Source: an uncultured Holophagae bacterium (GTDB taxonomy: Bacteria > Acidobacteriota > Thermoanaerobaculia > Thermoanaerobaculales > Sulfomarinibacteraceae). From it: a stretch of DNA of 64,000 nucleotides. This document shows positions 3,833 to 56,729 of the stretch, in pieces. The notes under the pieces were generated by a model. It saw only the letters and a list, made by a program, of their open reading frames with translations. It had not been told where the DNA came from and ran no database searches. Location of the stretch: the NCBI GenBank assembly GCA_963797055.1, contig CAWCOD010000002.1, positions 491,598 to 555,597 of the forward strand. Direction: 5' to 3'. The position numbers and the translations under genes were made by a program. Numbering within the stretch: the stretch's first letter is position 1; each line of letters opens with the position of its first letter.

Positions 3833-3985
3833 GGGGGCGCGCTGGGCGGGCGTGCCGTCCGCACACGCGTCGCGAACGCGGGGACCGGTGCCAGGCACCG
3901 TCGAAATCGAATCGGAGCACGAGATCGACACATCTGTGGCGGTGCCTGGCACCGACATGGAGATCGCGAATGCGATGGTGGCGGT
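3833..3985 (+). repeat. Dispersed repeat family A, copy 1
   Basis: GGGCGGGCGTGCCGTCC module, then GGTGCCAGGCACC (3887..3899), a 41-nt conserved spacer and GGTGCCTGGCACC (3941..3953), then GACATGGAGATCG. Overlaps the attH-like start. Confidence 0.85.
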
Positions 3986-5088
3986 ACGTTGGCAGATCGA
4001 TGCTCGCCGTGCTGCTCACGGTCAGCTGCACTACGGCCGTGGCCACGGGTGCGGAGGGGGTCGATTGGGAACGGATCACCGGTCCTCCGGAGATCGATCT
4101 TCCACGGGATCACGGGGCGCACCCGGAAGTCCAGACCGAGTGGTGGTATCTCACGGCGAACCTCACGGGCACCGATGGCAACCGGTACGGCGTTCAGGTG
4201 ACGTTCTTTCGGAGCGGCCTCGACGCCTCGCCGCCGCAGCCGGACTCATCCCCGCTGCGGGCGCGTCAGGCGCTTGCGGCGCATCTGGCGGTGGTGGATG
4301 TGGAGCGGGGCGCGTTCCGCCACGCCGAGCGGGTCCGCCGCGCCGACGGCGGATTTGCCGGCTTCGCCACCGACGACCTGGGAGTCTGGCTGGGGGACTG
4401 GCAGCTCGAGCGGCGGGCCGACGACACCCTCGTGGCCGCGGCTTCCGACCGGGCGTCAGGAATCGGCGTGGAGCTCGAGTACCGGCCCGCCAAGCCGCTG
4501 GTCCGCCAGGGTGTCGACGGTTACTCGCAGAAGGGCTCCGACCCGGGCAACGCCTCGGCTTACCTGAGCTGGACGCGGCTCGAGGTGTCCGGGAGGCTCG
4601 TCCTCGACGGGCGCGAGGTGGAGGTCTCCGGTGCCGGCTGGTTCGATCACGAGTGGGGCACGTCCCAGCTCGGTGACGGCGTCGCCGGCTGGGACTGGTT
4701 CAGCCTCCGTCTCGACGACGGCTCGGAGCTGATGGTCTACCGGCTGCGCCGGGAGGACGGCTCCCCCGACCCCTATTCCTCCGGCACCCTTGTCCGAACC
4801 GACGGAACCACCCGCAGGTTGGCAGTGGACCAGGTGGTGCTGGAACCGACGGGATCATGGATCAGCCCGGAGACCGGTGGGTCGTACCCGTCGGGCTGGC
4901 GCATCGGAGTGCCGTCAGAAGGTCTCGACCTGACCGTCGAGCCGCTGCTGCCCTCGGCCGAGCTCGACGGCCGCGCCTCCACCGGGGTTGTCTACTGGGA
5001 GGGTCCGGTTGCGGTCACCGGGTCGCACACCGGGGAGGGCTACACCGAGCTCACCGGCTACGCGGGGAGCCTCGCCGGACGGTTCTGA
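3970..5088 (+). CDS. AttH-like lipocalin / CrtC (hydroxyneurosporene synthase) family protein, secreted
   Basis: ORF 3601..5088. Only the part from ATG 3970 looks coding (signal-like MLAVLLTVSCTTAVATGA). Family motif DHGAHPEVQTEWWYLTANLTGTDGNRYGVQVTFFR. The start is uncertain because 3833..3985 is a dispersed repeat copy; the alternative start is ATG 4000. Confidence 0.8.
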   Translation: MRWWRYVGRSMLAVLLTVSCTTAVATGAEGVDWERITGPPEIDLPRDHGAHPEVQTEWWYLTANLTGTDGNRYGVQVTFFRSGLDASPPQPDSSPLRARQALAAHLAVVDVERGAFRHAERVRRADGGFAGFATDDLGVWLGDWQLERRADDTLVAAASDRASGIGVELEYRPAKPLVRQGVDGYSQKGSDPGNASAYLSWTRLEVSGRLVLDGREVEVSGAGWFDHEWGTSQLGDGVAGWDWFSLRLDDGSELMVYRLRREDGSPDPYSSGTLVRTDGTTRRLAVDQVVLEPTGSWISPETGGSYPSGWRIGVPSEGLDLTVEPLLPSAELDGRASTGVVYWEGPVAVTGSHTGEGYTELTGYAGSLAGRF

Positions 5089-5721: not shown

Positions 5722-5835
5722 GCGCCTCCCTCGGAGGTGCCTGGCATCCCGATTCGCCGAGGTCGATGAGCGACCTGGCTCGTGGGGGCGAATCGGCGTG
5801 CCTGGCACCCTCACGGGAAGCGCGGCGGGAACATC
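5722..5835 (+). repeat. Dispersed repeat family B, copy 1
   Basis: GGAGGTGCCTGGCATCCCGATTCGCC, a variable loop, then GGCGAATCGGCGTGCCTGGCACCCTCACGGGAAGCG. Confidence 0.85.
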
Positions 5836-5951
5836 GGCGCGTCGAAAATGACACGTCCTGCCTGCTCCGTCGCGCCAGTTCTCCCTTCGCGCTCCCCGAG
5901 GTTACTCGCGGCCGGTGGCCGCGCCCACTGCCGCATCGGGTGGGTGGGCGG

Positions 5952-5984
5952 CAACTTTCAACTTTCGACTTTTCAACTTCCAAC
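5952..5984. repeat. 7-mer array (CAACTTT-like) after GGGTGGGTGGGCGG
   Basis: Box at 5938..5951. The array ends 15 nt before ATG 6000. Confidence 0.9.
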
Positions 5985-5999
5985 TCGAGAGGGGAGATC

Positions 6000-7667: not shown

Positions 7668-7880
7668 GCCAGGGAGCAGGGCAGCGCTCCCATCGGAGGC
7701 GCGGCGGGCAGTCCCGAGCTCGACCGAGGCCGACCAACGACCTGTCATCGTCGGAGGAGCGAAATCGCGGCGTGCCTGGCACCCTCATGGGAAGCGCGGC
7801 GGGAACATCGGCGCGACGAAAATGACACGTCCTGCCTGCTCGCGTCGCTGCCCGTTCTCCCTTCGCGCTCTCCGAGGTTG

Positions 7881-7954
7881 CCAGGTACGCGCATTGTGCG
7901 GCCCCATCGACATCGCCCGGCCGTCGCCAGTTGTTCGCACAATGACGTACCTGG
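7881..7954. repeat. Hairpin element family E, copy 1
   Basis: CCAGGTACGCGCATTGTGCGGCC, about a 30-nt loop, then GTTCGCACAATGACGTACCTGG. It is inserted in the paralog-2 leader relative to the paralog-1 leader. Confidence 0.8.
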
Positions 7955-8000
7955 CACGCCCGATCATCGCGCCCACTGCCAGATCCAAGTGGGAGCGCGG

Positions 8001-8032
8001 CAACTTTCAACTGTCAACTTTCAACTTCCAAC
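8001..8032. repeat. 7-mer array (CAACTTT-like) in the paralog-2 leader
   Basis: CAACTTTCAACTGTCAACTTTCAACTTCCAAC; homologous to 5952..5984. Confidence 0.9.
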
Positions 8033-8047
8033 CCGAGAGGGGGAGTC

Positions 8048-9717
8048 ATGAACGCGACACGAGTGACGTTATTGGCGGTGATTCTGTGTGCTCATTGTCG
8101 CGGTGGCGTCGGCGCAGACCGAGTGGGTTGAAAATCCGGTCGATCCGGTGCTCGGGACGGGTGAGCCGGGGTCCTGGGACTACATCCGACTGCCGGCTGA
8201 GGTCGTCCTGGTTGACGGCACCTACCACCTCTTCTTCGGCGGTCAGCCGGAGGGTGACCGATCGCCTATTCGACGCTCTTCAGTTGGGGCACGCGACGTC
8301 GTCGGATGGTGTGACCTGGGAGATCGACCCGGCCAACCCGGTTCTGACTCTTGGAGGGGCGGGTGAATGGGACTCCGCGACCCTCCTGCCGGGAGCCATC
8401 GTCCACGATGGGAACGGATTTCACCTGTGGTACCACGGGAGCAACCCGACGGAGATACCTACCTCAGCGCGGTCGGTTATGCGACTTCGCCGGATGGCTC
8501 AAACTGGGTGAAACACGACGGCAACCCGATCATGGGCGAGGGACTGCCCGGGACCTACGACGACGGAGGTGTGCTGCCTCGCACGGTGATCGTCCGAGAC
8601 GGACTCTACCAGATGTGGTACACCGCGATTCATCGCTCGGACAACGAGTATGATTGGCGAATCGGCTACGCCGTCTCGGACGACGGTCTGGACTGGACCC
8701 GGCACCCTGTCCCGGTGCTGGAACCAGGTGTCGGGTGGGAGCAACTGATCGTCTTTGCTCCTCATGTGAGATTCGAGAGGTCGCAGTACCACATGTGGTA
8801 TAGCGGCTCCAATGGCGGGACCTTCAATATCGGATATGCTGTCTCGTCAGACGGCATCGAGTGGACCAGGTATTGGGACAACCCCGTCGTGTCCCGAGAC
8901 CCCTCGATTGCGGCCGAGCTCCCGTTGATTGTCCTCAACCCGGACACCCAGACATACGAGATGTGGTACCGAAACCTGGTCAATCTCAGCATCTACCGAG
9001 CCGTGTCGAACTGCTGTGCCACGGTGCATCTGTTGATCATTCCGGCCGCCGCAGTGGCCTCGGGCGCTCAAGGGTGCCTTCTACCAGACCGACGTGGACC
9101 TCAACAACGCCGGTGAGCAGCCGGTGGAGTACGAGTTTCTGTGGTTGCCCAGGGGCGAGACCAACACCGACCCGATGACCTCGGAGCCCTTCAGCCTCGG
9201 CGCTGGCATGAGCGTTCGGTACGCCAACGTGTTGTCCGAGGTCTTCGGTCTCGAGCCCAACGCCTTCGGTGCCGTCGGCATTCTTGTCCTCGAGCCCGGA
9301 TCTTCTGGCCATGAGCCGGACCTACAACATACCGAGGGTGACGGATCTGCCGGGACCTTCGGCCAGGCGATTCCGGCCATCCCACCGAGCGACTTCATCC
9401 AGACCGGAGAGCGGCGGCGGATCCTGTTCGCCAGCGAGAACGAGGATTTGCGGTTCAACGTGGGCTGTCAGAGCGGCGGTGACGGAACCATGGTGGTCAA
9501 CCTCGAGCTCTTCGACCACGAGGGCAGCTCGTTGGGGACAGAGATGATGATCCTCAGGGCCTGGGGCAACGACCAGATGAATCGGATCTTCCAGGACTAC
9601 ATGCCGGTGAACGGCTACGTGGACGTGTGGACCACAGACGCCGACAGAAGCTTCTACTGCTACGGCTCGGTGCTGGACAACGTGACCAGCGACCCGACGA
9701 CGATTTTGCCGCAGTGA
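8048..9717 (+). pseudogene. Frameshifted paralog 2 of the secreted beta-propeller / C-terminal-domain protein
   Basis: Homologous sequence is spread over ORFs 7639..8511, 8088..8366, 8367..9116 and 9094..9717. ATG 8048 follows the same leader and RBS as paralog 1. Frame changes near 8090, 8265, 8455 and 9080, plus a compensating pair near 9285 and 9335. Confidence 0.8.
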
Positions 9718-9737: not shown

Positions 9738-9925
9738 GCGCGTCCCTCGGAGGTGCCTGGCATCCCGATTCGCCGAGGTCGACAAGACCGATTCGTCCCG
9801 CTGGAGCGAATCGGCGTGCCTGGCATCCTCACGGGAAGCGCAGTCGGAGAATCGGCGCGTTGAAGTCGGTAGATCGAACCGAATGAGAGGAATTTGTGGT
9901 GCGGCCGTCTCGGCTGCAATCACAA
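9738..9925 (+). repeat. Dispersed repeat family B, copy 2 (long form)
   Basis: Same stem modules plus a 3' extension (GGAGAATCGGCGCGTTGAAGTCGG ... TTGTGGTGCGGCCGTCTCGGCTGCAAT). Confidence 0.9.
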
Positions 9926-13844: not shown

Positions 13845-13990
13845 CGCAACAGGCGGGCGTGCCGTCCTCACGCGCGCCGCGAGCGCGCGGGCCGGTGCCA
13901 GGCACCGTCGAAATCGCATCGGAGCATGAGATCGATACATCTGCGGCGGTGCCTGGCACCGACATGGCGATCGGAATATGAGGTGGGCTC
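13845..13990 (+). repeat. Dispersed repeat family A, copy 3
   Basis: Arms at 13894..13906 and 13948..13960; same spacer with a few substitutions. Confidence 0.85.
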
Positions 13991-14082
13991 ACTCGGGGAG
14001 CGCCAGGGGGAGATGGGCGCGATGAAGTTCGGTCATCGATCTCATAGCGTTCGTCGCGCCCTGGCCGTCAGTGCGCTCCCCG

Positions 14083-14185
14083 TCGAGGATGCCAGGCACG
14101 CCGATTCGCCTGAAGTTCACGGGCACATCGACGCACGATGGCGAATCGGGATGCCAGGCACCTCCGAGGAACGCGCCCTCTTCCG
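14083..14185 (-). repeat. Dispersed repeat family B, copy 3 (inverted, short)
   Basis: Reverse complement of the core stems, with a different loop. Confidence 0.8.
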
Positions 14186-16067: not shown

Positions 16068-18134
16068 ATGTCAGTCAATAAAACATTTCGCATGGCAATT
16101 GCCGCAATTATGATCGTCGGCGGATTTTCCGGTGGGGACCTCCTCGCAGCGTCCCCGGCCGAGCGAATCTGGTCCCAGGCGCCGGCTTCATCCCTCGATC
16201 CCACAGCTGACAGGGCGATCATCCCGTTGAGATTTCAACCGGTCATCCTGGACCGTGCCGCCTTGGATGCCGAGTTGCGTCGAGCGCCAAACGAGATGGC
16301 TGAGAATGCCCAGGCCCTTGCCGTGGTGGTGCCTCTGCCCACCCCCGATGGTGGAATCGCGTACTTCAGGGTGGTGTCGTCGCCGATCATGGAGCCCGAG
16401 TTGGCCGCCCGGTATCCCCAGATTCAGACCTTCCGCGGCCAGGGGATCGACGATCCCAGCGCCACGGTGAGGATGGACCGCACCCTTCACGGATTCCACG
16501 CCATGGTGATGTCCTCCTCCGGGAGCTATTTTGTAGACCCCTACGCCAGGGGAGATGTGGACACCCACATCGTCTACTCCAGGTCCGATCTGGTGAATCC
16601 CCACGCAGGGGTCTTCAGCTGCGGCGTACCCTCTGACCAGGAGGGTGGCGGTGGCGAGGGAACCACTGAGGGCATGGAACTCTCAGGCGCATCGCTGAGG
16701 AGCTACCGGCTTGCCGTGGCGGCCACCGGGGAGTACACCGCCTTCCATGGTGGGACCGTTCCGGACGGCATGGCGGCCATCGTGACCGCGATCAACCGGG
16801 TCAACCAGATCTACGAGCGCGAAGTGGCGATTCGCATGATGTTGGTGGCCAACAATGACCTCGTGGTCTATACCAACGGTGCGAGCGATCCCTACTCCAA
16901 CTCCAACGGATACGCCATGCTCGGCCAGAATCAGAGCAATCTGGACGCCGTCATCGGCTCCGCCAACTACGACATGGGCCACGTCTTCTCCACCGGTGGT
17001 GGTGGCATCGCAAATCTTCGCGCGGTCTGCAACAACAGCTACAAGGCGCAGGGAGTCACCGGATTGCCGAGCCCCGTCGGCGATCCCTTCTACGTGGATT
17101 ATGTAGCCCACGAGATGGGCCACCAGTGGGGCGCCAACCACACCTTCAATGGTAATGAAGGCGGCGTGTGGTGGCGGCAACCGCAACCCGTCCACGGCCT
17201 ACGAGCCGGGCAGCGGATCAACCATCATGGCCTATGCCGGCCTCTGCGGCATCCCACAACACCCAGTACTTCAGCGACGACTATTTCCACGGAGCCAGTT
17301 TCTCGGAAATCGTCTCCTACAGTACGCGCGGGCGTCGGCAACAGCTGCGCTGCGGAGACAGCCACCGGCAACTCGCCGCCGCTCGTTGAGGCGGGTGACG
17401 CATTCACCATCCCGGTGTCGACCCCATTCGCGCTCTGCGGTTCGGCGGTGGACCCAGATGCCGATGTCCTGACCTACGGCTGGGAGGAGTTTGATCTCGG
17501 GCCCGCGGGTCATCCCAACACGCCGAGCGGAAACGCGCCGATCTTCAGGAGCTTCGACCCGGTGAACTCGCCAGAGCGGCTCTTTCCGAAGGCGTCCGAC
17601 ATCGTCAACAACGTGCAGACAAAGGGTGAAATCCTGCCGAGCTATGCCCGGAACCTGAACTTCCGATTGACCGCGCGGGACAACTTGTCGGGTGGCGGTG
17701 GGGTCGACTTCGACACCACCAGTCTCGCGGTCTCCGATGCCGGCGGCCCGTTCGTGGTGACCTCGCCGGACAGCGCCGTGACCTGGACCGGCGGCACCAC
17801 CCAAGTCGTGAGTTGGGACGTGGCCGGCACCGACCTGGCGCCCATCAGCTGTGACAGCGTGGATATCGCCCTGTCGCTGGACGGCGGCTGGAACTTCCCG
17901 CTGGTCCTGCTCAGCGACACTCCGAATGACGGCTCTCAGGCGGTGATGATGCCCGACCTCCAATCCGCCACGAGTCGCGTCCGGGTGAGCTGCCACGGCA
18001 ATGTCTTCTTCGATATCTCCAATACCAACTTCACGTTGACCGGCTCGGGCGCCATGTTTTTTCCGAGGGCACCGATGGCTGCGGCGGCGGCTGGGGGGCG
18101 TGGACCTCGGTCGTTCAGTAGGGCAAGGCAGTAG
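16068..18134 (+). CDS. Secreted reprolysin-like (M12B-type) zinc metalloprotease with an internally frame-scrambled segment
   Basis: Signal-like N-terminus [19 protein letters not shown]. Zinc motif [13 protein letters not shown]. Between about 17160 and 17335 the family-like sequence moves through the other two frames ([28 protein letters not shown] in ORF 17149; [21 protein letters not shown] in ORF 17168) and then returns. A further possible shift lies at the T6 run near 18055. Confidence 0.8.
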
Positions 18135-18435: not shown

Positions 18436-18640
18436 AGGCGCGTCCCTCGGAGGTGCCTGGCATCCCGATTCGCCAACGTCGACAAACCGACTCGTCCCGT
18501 TGGAGCGAATCGGCGTGCCTGGCATCCTCACGGGAAGCGTGGCTGGAGAATCGGCGCGTTGAAATCGGCACCTGAAACCGAACGAGAGGGGCATTGTGGC
18601 GGAGCCGTCCCGGCTGGGATTCTGGCCGCGATTGAGCGCG
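18436..18640 (+). repeat. Dispersed repeat family B, copy 4
   Basis: About 107 nt identical to 24744..24850. Confidence 0.9.
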
Positions 18641-24743: not shown

Positions 24744-24985
24744 GAAGGCGCGTCCCTCGGAGGTGCCTGGCATCCCGATTCGCCAACGTCGACAAACCGA
24801 CTCGTCCCGTTGGAGCGAATCGGCGTGCCTGGCATCCTCACGGGAAGCCCGCTCGGAGAATCTGCGCGTTGAAGTCGGCAGATTGAACCCAACGAGGTGG
24901 ATTTTGTGGCGCAGGCCTCTGGCCTGCATTCACTCAATCAATCAACGCCAGAATTGCAGGCGGGACGCCTGCGCTACAAAGGCGT
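24744..24985 (+). repeat. Dispersed repeat family B, copy 5
   Basis: Identical core to copy 4; the 3' extension diverges. Confidence 0.9.
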
Positions 24986-26192: not shown

Positions 26193-27896
26193 TCAGTTGG
26201 CATCGCCGGAAGTGTCATCCGACCCGAACTGAAGTCCGGCCAGCTGCTTGTAGTAGTCGAATCGGCTCAACGCGGCCTTCTGCGCCTGGGCCAGAAGTTC
26301 CTTCGATCGCTCCGGATTGACCTTTTGCAACATCCTGAAGCGGGTTTCGGAGAGCGCGAAGTCCGTGAACGGGACCTTTGGTGCCTTCGAATCCATTTTC
26401 AGTGGATTCTCGCCCACCGCCGTACGCCGCGGATCGAAGCGGTAGAGCGGCCAGAAGCCGCACTCCACGGCCGTCTTCTGGTGTTCGAGGCCGTCGCCAA
26501 GGTTGAAGCCGTGGGCGATGCAGTGCGAGTAGGCGATGATGATCGACGGGCCGGGGTAGGAGTCGGCCTCGAGAAAGGCTCGAACGGTCTGGTTGTCCTT
26601 GTAGCCGAAGGCCACCTGGGCCACGTAGACGTGGCCGTAGGCCATGGCCATCATGCCCAGGTCCTTTCGCTGCACGTCCTTGCCGCCCATGGCGAATTTG
26701 GCGGTGGCTCCGAGCGGTGTTGCCTTGGAGGCCTGACCGCCGGTGTTGGAGTAGACGCCGGTGTCGAGTACCAGCAGGTTGACGTCCCGTTTCATGGCGA
26801 GCACGTGGTCGAGGCCGCCGTAGCCGATGTCGTACGCCCAGCCGTCACCGCCGACGGCCCACACGCTCTTTCGGACCAGGTAGTCGGCCAGGTGGTCGAG
26901 CTCGCGGGCCTCCGGTCGGTCGATTCCGGCCAGCTTGGTGCGCATGGCGGCCACCCGTTCGCGCTGGGTCGCCACACCGGCCTCGTCGTTCTGATCGGCG
27001 GTGAGCAGCTCGTCGAGGAACTGGTCGCCGAGCTCGGATGACAGTTGTTTGAGGACGTTCACGGCGCGCTCGCGGGTCTGGTCCACCGCCAGCCGGAAGC
27101 CGAGGGAGAACTCGGCGGTGTCTTCGAAGAGGGAGTTGTTCCATGCCGGTCCCCGCCCGTCGGCGTTGACGGCGTAGGGGGTGGTGGGCAGGTTGCCGCC
27201 GTAGATCGATGAGCAGCCCGTGGCGTTGCCGATCAGGGTGCGGTCGCCGAAGAGCTGGGTGAGGAGCTTGACGTACGGGGTCTCGCCGCAGCCCTCGCAG
27301 GCCCCAGAGTACTCGAAGAGGGGCTGGAAGAACTGCGATCCCTTGACGTCGATCTTGAGCTTGGTGCGATCTACCTCGGGCAACCCGAGGAAGAAGTCGT
27401 AATTGACGGCCTCCGGCTCTCTGAGCGGCATCTGAAGGGTCATGTCCAAGGCCTTGTGTTTGGGGTTGGACTTGTCGCGCGCCGGGCAGACCTTGACGCA
27501 GAGAGTGCAGCCGGTGCAGTCCTCCGGAGCCACCTGGATGGTGTACTTCGAGCCGACAAAGTCCTTGGCCTTGTAGTCCACCGACTTGAACGTGGGCGGA
27601 GCGTCAGCCAGGAGTGACGGATCGTAGACCTTGGCGCGGATCGCGGCGTGGGGGCAGACCAGCGCGCACTTGTTGCACTGGATGCAGAGTTCCTCGTCCC
27701 ACACCGGGATGTCGATGGCGATGTTGCGCTTCTCCCACTGAGTGGTGGCGGTGGGCCACGTGCCGTCCGGTGGGAAGGCGCTGACCGGCAGCAGATCGCC
27801 CTTGCCGGCAATCATCAAGGCCGTGACCTTCTTGACCAGATCGGGGGCCTCGTCCGACACGATGGGCGGTCTGACCTTTGGTGGCGGTGACCGCAT
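26193..27896 (-). CDS. nifJ: Pyruvate:ferredoxin (flavodoxin) oxidoreductase NifJ, C-terminal part (split by frameshift)
   Basis: Ferredoxin-type clusters CIQCNKCALVCPHAAI and CTGCTLCVKVCP. TPP-binding region GGDGWAYDIGYGGLDH. Joins the upstream fragment near 27870. Confidence 0.9.
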   Translation of the reverse strand: MRSPPPKVRPPIVSDEAPDLVKKVTALMIAGKGDLLPVSAFPPDGTWPTATTQWEKRNIAIDIPVWDEELCIQCNKCALVCPHAAIRAKVYDPSLLADAPPTFKSVDYKAKDFVGSKYTIQVAPEDCTGCTLCVKVCPARDKSNPKHKALDMTLQMPLREPEAVNYDFFLGLPEVDRTKLKIDVKGSQFFQPLFEYSGACEGCGETPYVKLLTQLFGDRTLIGNATGCSSIYGGNLPTTPYAVNADGRGPAWNNSLFEDTAEFSLGFRLAVDQTRERAVNVLKQLSSELGDQFLDELLTADQNDEAGVATQRERVAAMRTKLAGIDRPEARELDHLADYLVRKSVWAVGGDGWAYDIGYGGLDHVLAMKRDVNLLVLDTGVYSNTGGQASKATPLGATAKFAMGGKDVQRKDLGMMAMAYGHVYVAQVAFGYKDNQTVRAFLEADSYPGPSIIIAYSHCIAHGFNLGDGLEHQKTAVECGFWPLYRFDPRRTAVGENPLKMDSKAPKVPFTDFALSETRFRMLQKVNPERSKELLAQAQKAALSRFDYYKQLAGLQFGSDDTSGDAN

Positions 27897-29775
27897 CGGG
27901 GATCGTTACCTCGTGGAGGTTGGCCAACGTGCCGTCCACGGCGTTGAAGTTGAGCTGGACGATCTCGTCGCCCTTCATGCCGTAGGTCTTCTTAATGGCG
28001 TCCTTGATCTTGGCGATCGCCTCGTCCCGCGGCAGGATGCCGGAGATGGCGAAGAAACAGGTCTGCATGATGGTGTTGGTCCGCCGACCCATGCCCGTGT
28101 CGCGGGCGACCTGAGTGGCGTCGATGCAGTAGACCTTGAGTCCCTTCTCGATGATCGACTCCTGGACTTCGCGCGGAAACTCGTCCCAGATGGCGTCGGG
28201 GCCGTAGGGAGAGTTCACCAGGAAGGTCGCGCCGGGTTGGGCGAACTCGAGCATGTCGAGCTTCTCGACAAAGACCCACTGGTGGCACGCGACGAACTTC
28301 GCCTTCCGGATCAGGTAGGTGGAGCGGATCACGTCCGGCCCGAACCGGAGATGCGAAATGGTCACCGCGCCGGCCTTTTTTGAGTCGTAGACGAAGTAAC
28401 CCTGAGCAAAGTTGTCGGTCTCCTCGCCGATGATCTTGATGGAGTTCTTGTTGGCGCCCACCGTGCCGTCGGCGCCGAGTCCGAAGAACACACCGCGGAA
28501 AACGTCGTCCGAGGCGATGGTGAAATCGTCGTCCATCTCCAGCGACAGGTGGCTGACGTCGTCGACGATACCCACCGTGAAGTGGTTTTGGGGACGGTCA
28601 GCGGCCAAATTGTCGAAGATGGCCTTGATCATGCAGTCGTTGAACTCCTTGGACGACAGGCCGTAGCGACCGCCCACCACCACCGGGTCCGCCGCGAACG
28701 GGCTCGAGCCGTCGGCTCTGGCCTCGACCAGGGCCGTGACCACGTCCATGTAGAGGGGTTCGCCGATGGAACCGGGCTCCTTGGTACGGTCCATGACCGC
28801 GATCTTCTTGGTGGTCTTTGGCAGGGCGTCGATGAAGTGTTTGATCGAAAACGGCCGGTAGAGCCGGACCTTGAGCACTCCCACCTTCTCGCCGTGGGCG
28901 TTCATCCAATCGACCATCTCGTGGACGGCCTCGGCGCCCGAACCCATGATGATGACCACGTTCTCGGCCTCGGGGTCGCCCACGTAGTCGAAGAGCCTGT
29001 ACTGGCGGCCGACATGGGCGGCGAAGGCGTCCATAGCGTCGATGACGTGACCGGGGCAGGCGTCGTAGAAGCCGTTGATGGCCTCGCGCGCCTGGAAAAA
29101 GGTGTCGGGATTCTGAGCCGTGCCGCGGATCACCGGATGATCCGGAGATAGGGCGCGTTCACGGTGGGCGCGGACCAGATCGTCGTCGATCAGGTGCCGA
29201 AGGTCGTCATCCTCGAGGTACTCGATCTTGGACACCTCATGGGAGGTCCTGAAACCGTCGAAGAAGTGCAGGAAGGGGATTCGGCTGCTCAAACTCGCCA
29301 TTTGGGCGATGCAGGCGAGGTCGTGGGCCTCCTGCACCGAATTGGACGACAGCAGGGCCCAGCCGGTCTGACGGCAGGCGTTGATGTCCGAATGGTCGCC
29401 GAAAATGGACAGGGCGTGAGTCGCCAGAGTGCGAGCCGAAACGTGGAACACCGCGGAGGTGAGTTCGCCCGCGATCTTGTACATATTCGGGATCATGAGC
29501 AGCAGACCCTGCGACGCGGTGAAGGTCGTGGTCAAAGCTCCGGCCTGCAACGAGCCGTGCACCGCACCGGCGGCGCCTGCCTCCGATTGCATCTCGATCA
29601 CATCGGGGACCGTTCCCCATATGTTGGTTCTCCCCTGAGCGGACCACTCGTCGGCGAACTCACCCATATTTGACGACGGAGTGATGGGGTAGATTGCGCA
29701 GACATCATTTATCCGATGAGCGACGGACGAGGTGGCCTCGTTGCCGTCGATCATGACCATTCGTCTTTGTGCCAT
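27604..29775 (-). CDS. nifJ: Pyruvate:ferredoxin (flavodoxin) oxidoreductase NifJ, N-terminal part (split by frameshift)
   Basis: MAQRRMVMIDGNEATSSVAHRINDVCAIYPITPSS is a typical PFOR N-terminus. Homology ends near VTATKGQT (about 27875), and the rest of this ORF down to 27604 is out of frame. The two parts sum to about 1190 aa, the normal NifJ length. Confidence 0.9.
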   Translation of the reverse strand: MAQRRMVMIDGNEATSSVAHRINDVCAIYPITPSSNMGEFADEWSAQGRTNIWGTVPDVIEMQSEAGAAGAVHGSLQAGALTTTFTASQGLLLMIPNMYKIAGELTSAVFHVSARTLATHALSIFGDHSDINACRQTGWALLSSNSVQEAHDLACIAQMASLSSRIPFLHFFDGFRTSHEVSKIEYLEDDDLRHLIDDDLVRAHRERALSPDHPVIRGTAQNPDTFFQAREAINGFYDACPGHVIDAMDAFAAHVGRQYRLFDYVGDPEAENVVIIMGSGAEAVHEMVDWMNAHGEKVGVLKVRLYRPFSIKHFIDALPKTTKKIAVMDRTKEPGSIGEPLYMDVVTALVEARADGSSPFAADPVVVGGRYGLSSKEFNDCMIKAIFDNLAADRPQNHFTVGIVDDVSHLSLEMDDDFTIASDDVFRGVFFGLGADGTVGANKNSIKIIGEETDNFAQGYFVYDSKKAGAVTISHLRFGPDVIRSTYLIRKAKFVACHQWVFVEKLDMLEFAQPGATFLVNSPYGPDAIWDEFPREVQESIIEKGLKVYCIDATQVARDTGMGRRTNTIMQTCFFAISGILPRDEAIAKIKDAIKKTYGMKGDEIVQLNFNAVDGTLANLHEVTIPDAVTATKGQTAHRVGRGPRSGQEGHGLDDCRQGRSAAGQRLPTGRHVAHRHHSVGEAQHRHRHPGVGRGTLHPVQQVRAGLPPRRDPRQGLRSVTPG

Positions 29776-35043: not shown

Positions 35044-35137
35044 GGAACGGTTGAACGTTCAACGTTCTCCTCCGCCCACCCGCCCAATTGCAGATTGCAG
35101 ATTGAAAATTGCAGATTCCGTCCCCCCACCCGCCCGG
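35044..35137. repeat. Composite: GAACGTT array / CCGCCCACCCGCCC / ATTGCAG array / CCCCCCACCCGCCCGG
   Basis: Two different 7-mer arrays, each followed by a C-tract box, immediately upstream of xerD. Confidence 0.9.
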
Positions 35138-35242
35138 AGGGAGAGGTCGCGATGATCGGACGTGCCGTCCTCGAGAGTCAAAAGTCGAAATTCGAAAGTC
35201 CCCGCCCTCCCACCCGAGGAGTGGGCGCAACGGGCGGGCGTG

Positions 35243-35317
35243 CCGGGTATAACGTTGTGCGGCCAAATGCCCTCGAGCGGTCATCAATCGTCAGGGCCGC
35301 ACAACGTTAATACCGGG
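35243..35317. repeat. Hairpin element family E, copy 2
   Basis: CCGGGTATAACGTTGTGCGGCC, about a 30-nt loop, then GGCCGCACAACGTTAATACCGGG. Same architecture as copy 1, with both arms changed together. Confidence 0.8.
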
Positions 35318-35369
35318 CAACCTCGGGGAGCGCGCTGGGAGAATCGGCGCGATCAATCGAGGCAAAAAG

Positions 35370-35545
35370 GCAGCCGAGACGGTTGCTCCACAATGTTCTC
35401 TTCGTTGGGTTCGATATACCGATTTCACCGCGCCGATTCTCCGGCCGCGCTTCCCGTGAGGATGCCAGGCACGCCGATTCGCTCCAGCGGGCCGAATCGG
35501 TTTGTCGACCTCGGCGAATCGGGATGCCAGGCACCTCCGAGGAAT
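35370..35545 (-). repeat. Dispersed repeat family B, copy 6 (inverted, long form)
   Basis: Reverse complement of the 9738..9925 architecture, including the extension. Confidence 0.85.
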
Positions 35546-37875: not shown

Positions 37876-39860
37876 CGGCCGGTGCCTTCTATCGGAGGCT
37901 GGCGGGGCTGCTCCTGCTGTGGTCCCTTCTCCCTCTGCCTTTCCTGTACATCGTGATGCCACCGTTTTGGATTACGGCCGGGATTGTCGCTCTGGCGTTG
38001 ATCTTGGTCCCGTCGTGGTCGCCGAAGCTGGAGCCGTGGGCCCTCAATCTGATTGCGGTTCTGATCGTGATCGGGGTTGTGGCCGCGGGCGGGATTCGAG
38101 TCGGGCCTCTCCGCCCCCTCGGTCATCTACTGCTCCTGCTGACCGCGGTTCGGGTGAGCCAGATCATCGACCGACGCTCGTTCCTCAAGGCCCTGCCGGC
38201 GATCTTCCTGGTGTGGGTTGTTTCCCTGACGTCGTCGACCCACGTGACGGCCCTTGTCTACTTTGCGGTGTCGGCCGTGGTCTGGTGGTGGACGGGCATG
38301 GAAATCCAATTGGCCGCAGTGGCGGTGGACGATGGCGTTCCCGCGGCTTCCGTCCGACCGAGGCACGCGCTGGTGGCCGCCGTCGTGGCCCTTGCGCTGG
38401 CGGTGCCGGTGTTCGTTTCGGTGCCCAGGCTGCGCTCGCCGTGGCTCGCCGGGAGCGGAGGCGTGCGGAGCGTGACGGGTTTCTCGAGTCGTGTGGAGCT
38501 TTCCGGAATCGGCACCATTCAGGAGTCTCAGGAGCGCGTGCTGGTGGTGCGATCGGTCAACGGTGAGCCCATCAGACCGGAATGGATGAGGCTGCGGGCA
38601 ACCGCCTTCGAGAGGATGACGGTGGAATCCTGGGCGCCGCGGCCTCCGGACCGTTCCGTTCGGCCGCGAAGCGGACTGATATGGCTGACGGAAGGAGACG
38701 AGGACATGGGCGACGCCGCCCAGTTGGAGATCGAACTCGACCGGCCGGACGAGTTCCTCTTCCTGCCCGGCGGTGCGATCGCCGTCGATGTTCCCGAGCC
38801 CGTTCGAATCGATCCGGCGGGGGGAGTCGTCCTCGTGTCGCCGGGGACCGGACCGCTTCATTACACCGTGTGGGTCTCTCGGACAGCTGTCCAACAACGT
38901 CTTGTCCCGCCCCCGAACGGCGGATTGGAGTTCGAGCCGGCCCCGGAGGTGCGCGCCCTGGCCATTCGGATCGCCGCCGGAGCCGCCACCGCCGAAGCCC
39001 GCGCTGCGGCCGTGGAAGCGTACCTCCAAAACGAGTACACCTACTCCATGACAGGGTTGGGGAGGATCGGTCCGGATCCGGTGAGTTGGTTCCTTCTCCG
39101 ATCCAGATCAGGCCACTGCGAGTACTTCGCCGGTGGGATGGCGGTGATGATGGGCGCGCTCGGCGATCCGGCACGAATGGTCGGAGGATACAGCGGTGGC
39201 GATCTGTCTCAGACCGGTGATGAGGTGGTGGTTCGCCAGGCCAATGCACATGCCTGGGTTGAGGTCTGGCTGGGACCGCGGCTGGGCTGGGGAGTCTTCG
39301 ATCCAACTCCGGCCGTCAACCTCCCGCGGCTCAATAAGGTGAATTTGGGAGACCGGTTGCGTTTTGCCTGGGAGAACATCCAGGCGGGTTGGGATAAGTA
39401 TGTCCTGACCTTCGGTGTTGCGGAGCAGATGCAGTTGCTGACCGCTGCTGGCGATCGTCTGGCGGCGGCGCTGAGTTCGTGGCGCCGGCGGGATACGGCG
39501 ATCGTTGTCGGAGCGCTGGCCCTGCTCTGGTTGACGTGGCGGGCGGTGAGGTGGTTTTTGCGCCGTACAAGCGGCGGGCGATCCGCGGGCCCCGCGTCTC
39601 CGGCATCACGGTCGATACGGCGACTGGTGCGTCGTCTTGAACGTTCAGGCGTCACGGTTCCTGTGGGAGCGACGGTCCGTTGGATCGGCCAGGCCGCGAC
39701 TCGCCGGTGGCCGTCGGCGTCCCAGCCGGCTGCCGACCTGGTGTGGCTGGCGGAGCGAGAGCTCTACTCAGAAGACGGGTCGGTCTACGGCCCGGTCGAG
39801 GTCCGCCGGGTCTGGTCCGACCTGCGCCACGCCATTCGCGACTCTCGCCGAGATTTTTGA
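37872..39860 (+). CDS. Transglutaminase-like membrane protein
   Basis: GTGA start/stop overlap with the upstream ORF. N-terminal TM helices. Catalytic core SGHCEYFAGGMAVMMGALGDPARMVGGY ... NAHAWVEVWL ... GVFDPTP. Confidence 0.9.
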   Translation: MTAGAFYRRLAGLLLLWSLLPLPFLYIVMPPFWITAGIVALALILVPSWSPKLEPWALNLIAVLIVIGVVAAGGIRVGPLRPLGHLLLLLTAVRVSQIIDRRSFLKALPAIFLVWVVSLTSSTHVTALVYFAVSAVVWWWTGMEIQLAAVAVDDGVPAASVRPRHALVAAVVALALAVPVFVSVPRLRSPWLAGSGGVRSVTGFSSRVELSGIGTIQESQERVLVVRSVNGEPIRPEWMRLRATAFERMTVESWAPRPPDRSVRPRSGLIWLTEGDEDMGDAAQLEIELDRPDEFLFLPGGAIAVDVPEPVRIDPAGGVVLVSPGTGPLHYTVWVSRTAVQQRLVPPPNGGLEFEPAPEVRALAIRIAAGAATAEARAAAVEAYLQNEYTYSMTGLGRIGPDPVSWFLLRSRSGHCEYFAGGMAVMMGALGDPARMVGGYSGGDLSQTGDEVVVRQANAHAWVEVWLGPRLGWGVFDPTPAVNLPRLNKVNLGDRLRFAWENIQAGWDKYVLTFGVAEQMQLLTAAGDRLAAALSSWRRRDTAIVVGALALLWLTWRAVRWFLRRTSGGRSAGPASPASRSIRRLVRRLERSGVTVPVGATVRWIGQAATRRWPSASQPAADLVWLAERELYSEDGSVYGPVEVRRVWSDLRHAIRDSRRDF

Positions 39861-39955
39861 ATTTTGAATTTTGAATGCTACGACCTTCCAGCCCGACGAC
39901 CCCCCCCGGGCGGGTGGGGGCATTCAAAATTCAGAATTGAGAATTGAGAATTCAG
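39852..39955. repeat. Composite: TTGAATT array / CCCCCCCGGGCGGGTGGGGG / inverted GAATTGA array
   Basis: The left array overlaps the transglutaminase stop codon. The right array is partly its reverse complement. Confidence 0.9.
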
Positions 39956-44589: not shown

Positions 44590-44757
44590 AGCGCGCCCCT
44601 CTCCCCGCAGCGCTCCCCGAGGTTACTCGCGGCCGGTGGCCGCGGTGACCAGCCGTCACCAGCGGGTGGCCGTAAGGCCTCTGATCCTGCGTACAGGATC
44701 GGACATGGCCGCCGCACACGGCCACGGCCACAACCGCTGCCGCCGGCAGGTTGCCCC
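44590..44757 (-). repeat. Dispersed repeat family F, copy 2 (inverted)
   Basis: Reverse complement shares the same three modules with 18252..18425. Fragments also occur at 5450..5490 and 5893..5930. Confidence 0.8.
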
Positions 44758-44850
44758 CTTAGACATTATTGGGACCTCACGGGATGAATTTGCCAGCACC
44801 TTGGTTCCCAACAATGTCAAAGACGGCACGCCCGCCAGACGCGCCCTCCT
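44755..44850 (+). repeat. Dispersed repeat family D, copy 1
   Basis: CCCCCTTAGACATTATTGGGACCTCACGGGATGAATTTGCCAGCACCTTGGTTCCCAACAATGTCAAAGACGGCACGCCCG is the reverse complement of 54890..54990. Confidence 0.8.
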
Positions 44851-44854
44851 CCCT

Positions 44855-44934
44855 CCGGGTGGGCGGGGGAATCTTTAATCTTTAGTCTGCAATCTGCAAT
44901 CTGGATGCAATTCGCAATTCGCAATCCGTAATGG
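44855..44934. repeat. CCGGGTGGGCGGGGG box plus mixed 7-mer arrays (AATCTTT, CAATCTG, CAATTCG)
   Basis: Box at 44855..44869, then about 65 nt of 7-mer repeats. Confidence 0.9.
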
Positions 44935-46822: not shown

Positions 46823-46953
46823 AGACACCCTCCAATCGGACTCAGGTAGTTTACCCGATAGCCCTGAAAGGCGGAGTTCGTGACTCGGGGCTCGGATTGG
46901 CAGGCGGACTCGTGCACGGGCACGGGCGCGGAGACGGGTCCACGCCGTCCGCA

Positions 46954-47049
46954 CCCGGGCGGGTGGAATCCGCAATTCACAATTCGCAATTCGCAATTCG
47001 CAATTCGAAATACGTATTACGTAATACGAAATGGTCGGGTGGGCGGGGG
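46954..47049. repeat. CCCGGGCGGGTGG / CAATTCG x5 and TACGTAA arrays / GGTCGGGTGGGCGGGGG
   Basis: Lies between the sulfatase-like gene and tmk, with a G-tract box on each side. Confidence 0.9.
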
Positions 47050-49339: not shown

Positions 49340-49530
49340 CCCAACCGCGCTCCCCGCGGTTGCCACCCTCGCATTCCGATCTCCATGTCGGTGCCAGGCA
49401 CCGCCGCAGATGTAGCGACCTCGTACTCCGATTCGATTTCGACGGTGCCTGGCACCGGCCCGCGCGTATTGGATGCGCTCCAGAACAGCACGCCCGCCCA
49501 TCGCGCCCCTCACTCCTGGTGGGTGGGGGA
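49340..49530 (-). repeat. Dispersed repeat family A, copy 4 (inverted)
   Basis: Reverse complement of the 5313..5490 consensus. Arms at 49390..49402 and 49444..49456. Confidence 0.85.
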
Positions 49531-49624
49531 TCTTCGTCCTCCATTCGGTAACGGCAACGATAACGGGCTCGGGCTCGGAGACGGAGTCGGGGTTGGGCCG
49601 TATACACTTTCAACACCATCTACA

Positions 49625-49737
49625 GCGGGCGGGCGGGGAATCTGCAATCTGCAATCTGCAATCTGTAATCTATCGCAATTCGAAATGGGCGGGTGGGGGT
49701 TCTCAAAGCCCTATAGCCCGGGCGGGTGGGTGGCGGC
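49625..49737. repeat. GCGGGCGGGCGGGG / AATCTGC x4 array / GGGCGGGTGGGGG / CCCGGGCGGGTGGGTGGCGG
   Basis: Three G-tract boxes and one array, ending 30 nt before the SSS transporter start. Confidence 0.9.
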
Positions 49738-49768: not shown

Positions 49769-51250
49769 ATGGGAGAGACATTCGTACCCTGGCTCCTGTT
49801 CCTCGTCTACGTCCTGACGATCATCGGCCTGACCTGGTGGAATCGCCGCAAGTCGTCGACGATGAGTGATTTTGCCGTCGGCAGTCGGAGCGTTCCGCCG
49901 TTTTTTGTCGGCCTGTCCCTGGCGGCCAATATGACGTCCGTGGCCACCTTCGTGATCAACCCGGGGTTGGTGCACGCGTATGGTTGGGCCGGTGTCATGG
50001 GTTATGGGGTTGCGGCGCCGCTGGGGATCTTTCTGGGCCTGATCGTGATGACCAAGAAGTTCCGCCGAGTTGGCGAACAGGTCACCGCTCTGACGATCCC
50101 CCAATGGATTGGCGACCGTTACGGCGACCGAAGGCTGACGGTCTTTTTTGCCGTTGTGAGTCTGCTCCAGGTCACCTTCCTGGTGCTCATCGTCACCGCG
50201 GTCTCGTTGGTTCTGATGGCGGTGCTCGAACTCCCCATGTTGATCGCTCTCACCATCGTGATCGGATTCACCTTTGCGTACATCTTCTTTGGTGGGGCGA
50301 GCGTCCACGTATGGTCCAACAGCGTCCAGGCCATCACCATGGTGGTCGTGGCCGGTCTATTGGTCGCCTCAGGATCCGAGTTCTTCGCCGACGGCGTCGG
50401 CGGCTTTTTCGAACGACTGGCAGCGGTGGGGCCGTACTATGCCGATGTCACAAATCCGGACAGCCTCCTGTTCCGTGATCTGTTCGAAGTCCTGGTGGCC
50501 AACTTCATTATTGGCATCGCGATCATCATGCAGCCCCACATCATGTCGAAGGCGCTGTATCTGAGGTCGGAACGGGACGTCAATCGCTACCTGATCACGG
50601 CCATGGTGGCCGGCACGATCTTCACCTCGGTCTTGCTCGTCGGTCTTTTCGCCCAACTGACCCTCGGTGGCGATATCGCACCCGACCATGTGGTGGCGAC
50701 CTACATCGCCACCGACTTCGCCCCCGGTTTGCGGGCCCTGATCATGCTGGGTGTCTTGGCGGCGGGCTTCTCGACCCTCGAAGGGGTGATTCTCGCGCTG
50801 TCGACCATCTTCGCCAATGATCTCTACGCCCCGTTGGCCGGCTTCGCCGGAGTTGATATCGATCGAATCACCGCCCGTCTTCTGCCGGTGGGTCGGATCT
50901 TTCTGGTGGCCCTGGCGCCGATCACCTTCGTGCTGGCCAGGGATCAGATCCTGGATCCTTCTCTGTCGGTGGCGATTTTCGCGCAGAACGGCATATATGG
51001 GCTCTTTGCGGCCACCTTCGCCCCGGTGCTGTTCGGCATGTTCAGCCAGCGGGCGACCAAGGGCCTGGCGTTGACCGCCGCGGTGGCGGCGCTGGTGATC
51101 CATTTCGGCATGTACTACGGCAAGATCACCATGTACCACAACAACCCGGCGGTACCCGCCGCCACGGCGCTCGTGGTGTCCACGTTGATCATGGCAGTCG
51201 GCGTCGCGTTTGCCAGGCCCGCTCAGGCTGAGGAGGGCGTTACACGTTAA
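49769..51250 (+). CDS. Sodium:solute symporter (SSS) family transporter
   Basis: ORF 49214..51250. The 5' 555 nt is repeat sequence. ATG 49769 gives MGETFVPWLLFLVYVLTIIGLTWWNRRK. About 13 TM helices. Confidence 0.85.
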   Translation: MGETFVPWLLFLVYVLTIIGLTWWNRRKSSTMSDFAVGSRSVPPFFVGLSLAANMTSVATFVINPGLVHAYGWAGVMGYGVAAPLGIFLGLIVMTKKFRRVGEQVTALTIPQWIGDRYGDRRLTVFFAVVSLLQVTFLVLIVTAVSLVLMAVLELPMLIALTIVIGFTFAYIFFGGASVHVWSNSVQAITMVVVAGLLVASGSEFFADGVGGFFERLAAVGPYYADVTNPDSLLFRDLFEVLVANFIIGIAIIMQPHIMSKALYLRSERDVNRYLITAMVAGTIFTSVLLVGLFAQLTLGGDIAPDHVVATYIATDFAPGLRALIMLGVLAAGFSTLEGVILALSTIFANDLYAPLAGFAGVDIDRITARLLPVGRIFLVALAPITFVLARDQILDPSLSVAIFAQNGIYGLFAATFAPVLFGMFSQRATKGLALTAAVAALVIHFGMYYGKITMYHNNPAVPAATALVVSTLIMAVGVAFARPAQAEEGVTR

Positions 51251-51318
51251 ACGTTAAAAGTCAGACGTTTAAAGCCGAACGCTCAACGCAGGCTCTCTCG
51301 AAGATTCCCTTCGCGAAT

Positions 51319-51365
51319 CCGGGTGGGCGGGCGGAACGTTGAACGTGCAACGTTCAACGTGTAAC
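51319..51365. repeat. CCGGGTGGGCGGGCGG plus GAACGTT/CAACGTG array
   Basis: Box, then AACGTTGAACGTGCAACGTTCAACGTGTAAC. A related ACGTTAA array is at 51243..51290. Confidence 0.9.
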
Positions 51366-54733: not shown

Positions 54734-54800
54734 CCCCCCCGCCCGCCCGACCAATTGCAGATTGCAGATTGCGAATTGCGGATTCCGCCCACCCGCCCGG
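54734..54800. repeat. CCCCCCCGCCCGCCCG / ATTGCAG array / CCGCCCACCCGCCCGG
   Basis: Same array type and box arrangement as 35072..35137. Starts at the stop codon of the radical SAM gene. Confidence 0.9.
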
Positions 54801-54889
54801 ATCGTGAGAGGTTGTGATGGGCGGGCGTGCCGTCCAAGGGAGTTGAAAGTCCAAAGTCAACAGTTGAATGTCCCCACCCGCCCAACCGA

Positions 54890-54990
54890 AGCGAAAGGGC
54901 GCATTGGTCGGGCGTGCCGTCTTTGACATTGTTGGGAACCAAGGTGCTGGCAAACTCATCCCGTGGGGTCCCAACAATGTCTAAGGGGGC
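54890..54990 (-). repeat. Dispersed repeat family D, copy 2
   Basis: Inverted copy of 44755..44850. Confidence 0.8.
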
Positions 54991-55210
54991 TCCCTCGGGG
55001 AGCGCCTCGGGGAGATGGGCGCGACGAAGGAACTGAAATCCATGATTGAACTCGGATTCCTGTCGCGCCCATACGCTCCAGGGAGATTGGCGCGCGGAAA
55101 CCGACGAACCGAACCGAACGCGCGGGAGTTGTGGTGCGGCCGTCTCGGCTGCATTTTTGGTTTGATTGACCGCACGAAAGCAGGCCAGAAGCCCGCTCCA
55201 CAGCGATGAA

Positions 55211-56192: not shown

Positions 56193-56284
56193 CGCTTTTA
56201 CCTCCGTCCGGTCATATGGTTCACACTACCATCGACCGGTTCGGCGAGCTTTTTCCGCCGGAGCGCCATGTGATGGCGCGATGA

Positions 56285-56400
56285 TCGGAGGTGCCTGGCA
56301 TCCCGATTCGCCAAGGTCGAAAATAGTACCTTCTCGTTGAGCCGAATCGGCGTGCCTGGCAGCCTCACGGGGAGTCCGCTGAGAATTGGGGCGCGACGAA
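56285..56400 (+). repeat. Dispersed repeat family B, copy 8
   Basis: Core stems with a unique AT-richer loop (AAGGTCGAAAATAGTACCTTCTCGTTGAGCC). Confidence 0.85.
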
Positions 56401-56435
56401 GCCGCCAAGGCGTCAATGACCGAACATCCGTCCCC

Positions 56436-56645
56436 TCAGCGCGCCCCTCTCCCCGCAGCGCTCCCCGAGGTTGCCACCCTCGCATTCCGATCTCCATGTC
56501 GGTGCCAGGCACCGCCGCAGATGTAGCGACCTCGTGCTCCGATTCGATTTCGACGGTGCCTGGCACCGGCCCGCGCGTATTGGATGCGCTCCAGAACAGC
56601 ACGCCCGCCCATCGCGCCCTCCTCCGATCCGGGTGGGCGGGGGAA
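56436..56645 (-). repeat. Dispersed repeat family A, copy 5 (inverted)
   Basis: Near-identical to 49340..49530 over about 190 nt. Arms at 56501..56513 and 56555..56567. Confidence 0.9.
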
Positions 56646-56712
56646 TCTGCAATCTGCAATCTGCAATCTGCAATCTGCAATCTGCAATTCGCAATTCGCA
56701 ATTCGTAATTCG
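56629..56712. repeat. CCGGGTGGGCGGGGG plus the longest array (AATCTGC x5, then AATTCGC/AATTCGT x4)
   Basis: Box at 56629..56643; about 68 nt of 7-mer repeats, ending about 18 nt from the stop of the EAL gene. Confidence 0.92.
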
Positions 56713-56729
56713 TGTGTGGGTGAGAGGGG

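Follow-up and report, generated by a model that had tools for sequence, protein, structure and literature searches.

REP sequences, the repetitive extragenic palindromes of Enterobacteria and Pseudomonas, are imperfect palindromes of 20-40 nt with a short loop, and the BIMEs (bacterial interspersed mosaic elements) known from those bacteria bind IHF, DNA gyrase or DNA polymerase I. The known bacterial MITEs and modular repeats include the Correia (NEMIS) elements of Neisseria, the enterobacterial ERIC sequences and the pneumococcal BOX elements with their A, B and C modules; integron attC sites range in length from 57 to 141 nt. REPIN systems are defined by a single-copy RAYT partner. REPINs are REP doublets that form hairpins (Bertels and Rainey 2011, PMC3116915), and the definition of a REP includes an unpaired GTAG or CGTC tetranucleotide tag at one end (PMC3733652). 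Thermoanaerobaculia are not among the lineages with tagged REP repeats in that survey (PMC3733652). The stretch of DNA analysed here, 64,000 nucleotides from an uncultured Holophagae bacterium (hereafter the window), carries two hairpins, E1 and E2, which the first-pass annotation treated as a two-member family. That view is too narrow, as type E proves to be one subtype of a superfamily of units with constant flanks. We think it reasonably probable that hairpin E represents one subtype of a non-coding modular repeat of ~100 nt, REP/BIME-like or MITE-like, and not a regulator specific to the adjacent gene.

Hairpin E1 lies at 7881..7954, on the minus strand in the L-to-R orientation of the family, with arms CCAGGTACGCGCATTGTGCGGCC / GTTCGCACAATGACGTACCTGG, a stem of ~19 bp that carries one bulged C, and a loop of ~33 nt. 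Hairpin E2, at 35243..35317 on the plus strand, has arms CCGGGTATAACGTTGTGCGGCC / GGCCGCACAACGTTAATACCGGG, a stem of ~20 bp in which an A bulges out and a G-G mismatch lies at the base, and a loop of ~32 nt. Each occupies a slot whose flanks, L (CGGGCGTGCC) and R (GGCAACCTCGGGGAGCGC), are constant, a frame that emerges once all copies are set in one orientation. The complete E1 unit spans 7865..7965 (minus), with its L flank GATCGGGCGTGCC at 7965-7953, then the hairpin, then its R flank GGCAACCTCGGAGAGCGC at 7882-7865. The complete E2 unit spans 35232..35333 (plus) and runs from the L flank, here given more fully as GGGCGGGCGTGCC, through the hairpin to R. The two match model R1 at 71.4 bits (E 7e-12) for E1 and 80.7 bits (E 1e-13) for E2, and near-identical copies of E2 are present on the metagenome contigs L105, L134, L125 and L146. 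Single-strand folding energies for E1 and E2 lie between -32.6 and -40.4 kcal/mol, with z-scores of -3.5 to -5.5 that were equalled by none of 200 dinucleotide shuffles on either strand. The window contains the common core, TTGTGCG-N(20-45)-CGCACAA, exactly two times, compared with 0.00 occurrences expected from shuffles. Re-reading of the sequence thus bears out both hairpins, with the coordinates and arms given to them in the first-pass annotation, and the core that it saw in both copies is not a product of chance.

The same annotation held that the arms of the two copies had changed together with pairing preserved. This is true of four differing positions in the stems: a pair at GTAC/GTAT that is C-G in one copy and U-A in the other, a pair beside TTGTG that is A-U in one and G-C in the other, and two further differences in the variable box, where the bulge has moved by one base. 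It is not true of the third position of the outer arm, where CCAGG/CCTGG forms an A-T pair while CCGGG/CCGGG gives a G-G mismatch, unpaired in the computed fold; of 55 type-E copies, 9 have an A-U pair here and 46 have none.

Does this pairing persist when many more copies than two are compared? In a superfamily alignment of 83 distinct units (A1), RNAalifold identifies 21 pairs, and in 13 of these both sides have changed. Compensatory double changes are seen at 13 of 17 stem pairs over the family as a whole; four invariant pairs follow from the search pattern and are uninformative. The pair positions of A1 are standard-paired in 96.3% of cases, compared with 42-56% after sliding the 3' partner along by 1-3 columns. 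Double-change pair positions number 282, against 23-65 in the slid controls, and the covariation score is 0.455, against 0.06-0.11, a value reached in none of 500 shuffles. A second alignment (A4) comprises 55 distinct type-E copies, obtained from a metagenome scan with the type-E base pattern together with the genome loci. Here GGT...ACC and TTGTGC...GCACAA are constant, partly by construction of the pattern and filter, and the variation falls in a box of seven positions between these constant parts, where it is compensatory (89.6% paired, compared with 33-45% in controls; covariation 0.190, compared with 0.02-0.03; 103 double-change positions, compared with 7-22). At pair 21-78, for example, GC is found in 24 copies, UA in 11, AU in 10 and CG in 8, and two copies only are unpaired.

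Close relatives show the same constraint over shorter divergence, the loop diverging at about the rate of the adjacent genes while the stem is unchanged. An E1 ortholog at L056:3694-3791 has 4 differences from E1 and a second E1-like copy has 8; all 12 of the pooled differences are in the loop, with none in 41 stem and flank positions. For the E2-like copies there are 15 differences, of which 13 are in the loop and the remaining 2 form a single compensatory pair (A-T to C-G). The imperfections of the stem are conserved as well: a U.G pair at 12-92 in 55 of the 83 superfamily units, a bulged base in the 3' arm, and, in type E, the G-G mismatch, kept by 46 of 55 copies. Since ten or more arm variants coexist in a genome, too many for one sequence-reading protein, it is probably the pairing itself that is maintained. 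We infer that the stem must pair within one strand, either RNA or DNA, and that its arm sequence is otherwise free. The reality of the hairpin and of its covariation is strongly supported, and the earlier proposal of a selected hairpin now draws on a far larger set of copies, whose arm changes are compensatory.

Outside the window, the genome collection was scanned with the flanks only (CGGGCGTGCC-N60-90-CCTCGGRGAGCGC), the hairpin not being assumed, and at least 97 loci were recovered. Among the matches listed, at least ~80 are true units, all of them from Acidobacteriota metagenome-assembled genomes labelled Holophagae, Thermoanaerobaculales or Candidatus Sulfomarinibacteraceae (class Thermoanaerobaculia); the remaining listed matches are chance occurrences in unrelated taxa and have no hairpin. 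In every true unit listed the slot is filled by a hairpin of 71-78 nt, and the L-to-R gap is held to this tight range within the N60-90 searched. The stem base reads GCC-GTCTTTGAC...GTCAAAGG-GGC or GCC-GGGTAT...ATACCG-GGC, and type E accounts for 13 of the 83 flank-defined units. The genes of the window are 83-85% identical to, and syntenic with, those of MFD09964.bin.1.27. A search of the accessible literature returned no account of such repeats in Thermoanaerobaculia, Holophagae or Sulfomarinibacter, and this family of roughly 100-nt structured intergenic repeats from uncultured Thermoanaerobaculia is apparently undescribed.

Comparison of the window with itself places each of the two hairpins inside a long intergenic repeat with at least a dozen occurrences, and the slot between L and R is variously filled. 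A sister unit at 54906..55005 (plus; 88.3 bits with model R1) has the same frame around a non-E hairpin, GACATTGTTGGGA / TCCCAACAATGTC, and another at 44736..44837 (minus; 56.9 bits) carries the same 74-nt hairpin type with a diverged R flank. At 13851..14003 (plus) the slot holds a 127-nt insert with the hairpin CGGTGCCAGGCACCG / CGGTGCCTGGCACCG, and further copies of this insert type, with its TGCCAGGCA-type hairpin, are found at 49347-49499 and 56458-56610, both on the minus strand. A second kind of unit, B, is represented at 35447..35539 (minus) by the hairpin CGGAGGTGCC-TGGCATCCCGATTCGC...GCGAATCGGCGTGCCTGGCA-CCTCACGGGAAGCGC, tail-to-tail with the E2 unit; other B units lie at 5732-5823(+), 9748-9841(+), 14073-14166(-), 18448-18540(+), 24758-24850(+) and 56286-56377(+). 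Their arms contain TGCCTGGCA and their flanks are L-like and R-like. B units match model R1, which was built from the main family, weakly (E 7e-5 to 0.013), and on this score unit B may be a distant relative within the same superfamily. A TGGCAT-N5-TTCGC segment in unit B is loosely sigma-54-promoter-like, although its -12 element does not match.

The units are embedded in intergenic mosaic blocks of 200-800 nt, usually tail-to-tail with the second hairpin type and with simple repeats and G/C-tract motifs around them. Such tail-to-tail arrangements of A and B units occur at five sites in the window (5732/5945, 7797/7962, 13851/14166, 35235/35539 and 56286/56610). On the L side of the frame stand G/C-tract motifs and a tract of simple repeats with units of 6-7 nt; the place of this tract is conserved across the family while its repeat unit varies from copy to copy. 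For E1 this is a CAACTTT-like heptamer repeat at 8001..8033 (plus), between the L side of the unit and the RBS and ATG (8048) of the gene referred to here as paralog 2; for E2 the equivalent tract, of GCAGATT units, lies at ~35088-35120. Tandem repeats of 6-7 nt were seen in the window at 947-996, 5950-5990, 8001-8033, 35088-35120, 39855-39943, 44854-44903, 46950-47036, 49623-49672, 51239-51365 and 56641-56727, with GCAATCT, CAACTTT, TGAATTT, AACGTT and others as their units. These tracts are often directly upstream of the RBS of a gene, and some complementary pairs of tracts are the arms of a further hairpin around CCCACCC...GGGTGGG. The mosaics lengthen intergenic regions from ~300 to ~750 nt, and structured repeats occupy about one tenth of the window, on a rough estimate from the mosaic-bearing spacers.

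In this organisation the family resembles REPs and BIMEs, which are likewise high-copy, intergenic, imperfect palindromes joined with conserved linkers into mosaics, found in every gene context and often in transcribed untranslated regions. The architecture is that of a BIME, with A and B units alternating in orientation and conserved scaffold motifs on both sides. The dimensions, however, are not those of a REP: the hairpin is 71-78 nt long, with a stem of ~17-20 bp and a loop of ~30 nt, compared with 20-40 nt. Neither is there a GTAG or CGTC tag, the stem base being GCC followed by RKYY; a CGTC occurs only where a subtype begins with GTC, and type E (GCCGGGTA, GCCAGGTA) has none. A further difference from REPs and BIMEs is that many compensatory stem variants coexist in one genome inside an invariant frame. 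With REPINs the units share a hairpin of ~100 nt made of two inverted arms and a less conserved spacer, populations of variants within a genome, and presence or absence between relatives. They differ from REPINs in having constant flanks outside the hairpin and in their arms (GTCTTTGACATTGTTGGGA, GGGTATAACGTTGTGCGG), which as read have no internal self-complementarity and are not small palindromes. The RAYT transposase partner of REP and REPIN systems was not found in the ~0.84 Mb sampled.

The likeness to MITEs lies in a size within the 70-300 nt class, in terminal inverted arms (here of ~20 nt, in a unit of 75-100 nt), in insertion within untranslated regions, where they fold, and in modular build. 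In known MITE families, however, the arm sequence is fixed, whereas here it varies freely under compensation. The units also differ from MITEs in that no target-site duplication accompanies them, and no parent insertion sequence with matching ends was found at the sampled loci.

How, then, do the hairpins come to differ from site to site? E1 had been said to behave as an insertion, as it is present in the leader of paralog 2 and absent from the homologous leader of paralog 1. The slot in the paralog-1 leader (5889..5945, minus) lacks a hairpin and has kept its R flank, giving a weak match to model R1 (18.4 bits), but it is not an empty site. In place of L and the hairpin it holds another module of 17 nt, ACTCGCGGCCGGTGGCC (5904-5920), with a junction, GGCCGCGAGTAACCTCGG, that recurs in other mosaics; a mini-palindrome, GCGGCC-GGT-GGCCGC, is present in this leader module at 5908-5922. 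The filled leader (7865-7965) therefore has 89 nt, comprising L flank and hairpin, where the hairpin-less one has 17 nt. No target-site duplication was found in the comparison of these two leaders, and since the L and R flanks are common to all copies an insertion target is unrecognisable. What survives of the insertion reading is the gain and loss of whole mosaics and the exchange of hairpins, and it is replaced by one of module exchange and mosaic turnover.

Turnover of whole mosaics is seen at several sites. The spacer between XerD and MoxR is 317 nt long and free of mosaic in L022, compared with ~750 nt in the window, and at 54738-55210 the spacer of the window is the longer one by ~325 nt. 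Conversely, L056 has an extra E1-like copy beside an SMC gene, at a place where the window has none. In L056, moreover, paralog 1 is preceded by an ordinary promoter region that carries no mosaic. The window has retained this promoter (~5556), but downstream of it the mosaic, the RBS and the first five codons are replacements, and a paralog is the probable source from which leader 1 was copied. Exchange of hairpins is seen at site 56458-56610, where the window has the 127-nt type and a relative has a 74-nt hairpin, with one flanking side ~99% identical over ~300 nt and the far flank similar. At ~3844-4000 the window again has the 127-nt type and contig L147 a type-E hairpin; the L flank is common to both, the canonical R flank is present in L147 only, and alignment over the remaining spacer is poor. 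L054 carries three units of ~192 nt in tandem, whose scaffolds are 87-100% identical and whose three hairpins are all different, one of them being type E.

Some further observations concern segments larger or smaller than a unit. One related genome (L060, L063, L082 and L097) contains at least 5 near-identical copies of a segment of more than 950 nt, which consists of the 3' end of a gene and a complete mosaic; this is a larger element with several copies or else a gene family carrying its mosaic. Five identical non-E hairpins in one genome were considered as evidence of transposition and rejected, as all lie inside this duplicated segment and are therefore uninformative on movement of the hairpin alone. 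Stubs at 54831-54860, in L010 and in L138 consist of the L flank and GTC(C/A)AAGGG(A/G)G, followed by the simple repeat; on their sequence they look like a stem base from which the hairpin interior has been deleted between short GTC direct repeats. Finally, a non-coding leader of ~300 nt (56180-56480, compared with L049) is ~99% identical, including the non-repeated stretch 56193-56285, while the adjacent coding sequence is ~81-85% identical. This difference points to strong constraint or recent exchange, and mosaic DNA conserved at ~99% beside genes at ~81-85% is not easily explained by a purely selfish repeat.

For the REP/BIME-like or MITE-like repeat that we favour, we propose that a unit would work, or be tolerated, solely when one of its strands folds. 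The folding strand would be either RNA, made as part of the untranslated ends of transcripts from neighbouring genes, or single-stranded DNA. The simplest route by which hairpins could swap between constant scaffolds would be recombination or gene conversion through the shared flanks. Homologous conversion across these flanks would yield the swap boundaries that are observed, so that the flanks would suffice to explain the exchange.

A different route would be a dedicated enzyme that recognises the single-stranded DNA fold, such as a HUH nuclease of the RAYT/TnpA type or a tyrosine recombinase acting as on attC, and that transfers hairpin cassettes after cutting at the stem base. The swaps that end exactly at GTGCC|...|GGC are what such an enzyme would produce, but recombination between identical flanks would give the same boundaries without any special enzyme. 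Other features that would suit it are the conservation of structure over sequence, with bulges and mismatches kept, the different hairpins on tandem scaffolds and the G.U pairs at the stem base that favour the fold of one strand in the superfamily. The likeness to attC sites extends to extrahelical bases, similar length and tandem arrays with differing variable parts. The units, however, lack the attC core motifs, there being no R'' (RYYYAAC) or R' (GTTRRRY) site at the stem base, and there is no integron integrase and no array of cassette ORFs in one orientation; ordinary chromosomal genes, housekeeping genes in both orientations among them, lie between the units. A tblastn search with IS200 TnpA and E. 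coli RayT, used as approximate queries, found no Y1 transposase at E<0.1 in the window and the first 97 loci (~0.84 Mb). The genes bracketed by inverted units at the sampled loci L010 and L094 encode TldD/PmbA-like or secreted proteins and no transposase, and the sole tyrosine recombinase in the window, which is XerD-like, adjoins E2 only. Nor was an empty scaffold found, L abutting R directly in none of the loci examined. Together with the lack of a target-site duplication, this leaves discrete mobility of the hairpin unsupported, and we regard an enzyme of this kind as unlikely.

In a broader form, the units could be parts of an unrecognised system of folded single strands, either interchangeable hairpin cassettes moved by a structure-specific nuclease or recombinase, or a multi-copy scaffold RNA with variable 30-nt loops. 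Such a system would be consistent with the different hairpins on tandem scaffolds, with the exact swaps at orthologous sites and with a mosaic more conserved than its genes; we nevertheless hold it to be decidedly unlikely.

If the folded strand were RNA, a unit might be a free-standing small RNA gene, its conserved scaffold (L, stem and R) displaying a ~30-nt variable loop that might serve, for instance, as guide or antisense sequence. The constancy of the flanks and variability of the loop would suit such a gene, as would the strand preference of the superfamily. When folded as RNA, the L-to-R strand has a mean energy of -42.3 kcal/mol, compared with -37.1 kcal/mol for the reverse, and is the more stable in 78 units, compared with 9; model R1 scores 70-95 bits on the forward strand and 35-50 bits on the reverse. 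The greater stability is due to the U.G pairs at the stem base, however, and about three inherited positions account for the asymmetry. Type E, in which G-C replaces the U.G pairs, does not show it, and each strand is the more stable about equally often. Unit orientation is independent of the neighbouring genes, as expected for a free-standing gene, and the L-to-R strand is not consistently the one transcribed with them. Against a small RNA gene, a scan around both copies found no sigma-70-like promoter on either hairpin, and neither copy has an intrinsic terminator of G+C-rich stem and U tract, the stem being followed by GGCAACCTCGGGG. Searched over the whole window, Rfam gave no match at gathering score, and matches around E2 with E up to 10 (14-19 bits) are noise. 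Elsewhere in the ~0.84 Mb of sampled DNA, matches to the loop sequences do not exceed 14 nt. These results make a small RNA gene very unlikely.

The placing of E1 in the leader of paralog 2 by the first-pass annotation implied a cis-regulatory leader specific to the downstream gene. E1 does lie 87 nt upstream of the paralog-2 ATG, E2 is upstream of both XerD and MoxR, and the mosaic of window paralog 1 stands between the retained promoter and the ATG; in the paralog leaders of the window, a unit so placed between promoter and start codon would be transcribed. Across the family, however, units also lie downstream of genes, between convergent genes, in antisense orientation and beside unrelated gene families, and orthologous genes in relatives have no unit. 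With genes called by a simple caller based on third-position GC, 25 flanking arrangements are antisense-tandem, 23 convergent, 18 divergent and 10 sense-tandem. The antisense excess in tandem contexts (25 compared with 10) is weak, as it has no backing from tests of unit orientation against local GC skew (37 compared with 27, p=0.26) or against majority gene strand (27 compared with 30), neither of which gave a link. The neighbouring genes are ordinary: the paralogs, which encode GH130/GH32-like secreted proteins, a XerD-type recombinase, MoxR-DUF58, a radical SAM enzyme, a sulfatase and TldD/PmbA-like proteins. The occurrence of all four contexts, with ordinary and mixed neighbours, rules out a leader or terminator that serves a single gene family. 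The context counts largely refute gene-specific regulation, which we consider highly improbable.

Paralog 2 itself had been described as decayed. It is indeed frameshifted right after its start codon, but both paralogs are fragmented in a related assembly too (L056 1500-5700), so that an indel error of assembly is possible. Apparent frameshifts were noted in three genes of the window, namely paralog 2 (8048-9717), a pyruvate:ferredoxin oxidoreductase split into two overlapping ORFs (26193-29775) and a metalloprotease with an out-of-frame stretch (16068-18134), and part of this apparent gene decay may reflect indel errors of long-read assemblies.

That the hairpins are neutral palindromes, their arms kept complementary by within-strand template switching or arm-to-arm conversion without selection on folding, is extremely improbable, since although such processes can homogenise long inverted repeats, and the L+GTC+AAGGG stubs look like slippage deletions of a hairpin interior, the imperfections are kept and not erased, the hairpin length is tightly fixed, and the stem stays unchanged beside a loop that diverges about as fast as the adjacent genes.

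We conclude that a modular intergenic repeat of the REP/BIME or MITE kind best accounts for hairpin E. Its combination of a fixed frame and a free stem sequence with fixed pairing, length and imperfections makes the family an unusually clean natural record of compensatory evolution, and the flank pattern provides a concrete handle for finding every copy. If there is no enzyme or RNA function behind the units, they still constitute a new repeat family, one to be masked in annotation and able to confound assembly. If there is such a function, they would represent a new folded-single-strand system in a poorly known class of uncultured sediment Acidobacteriota.
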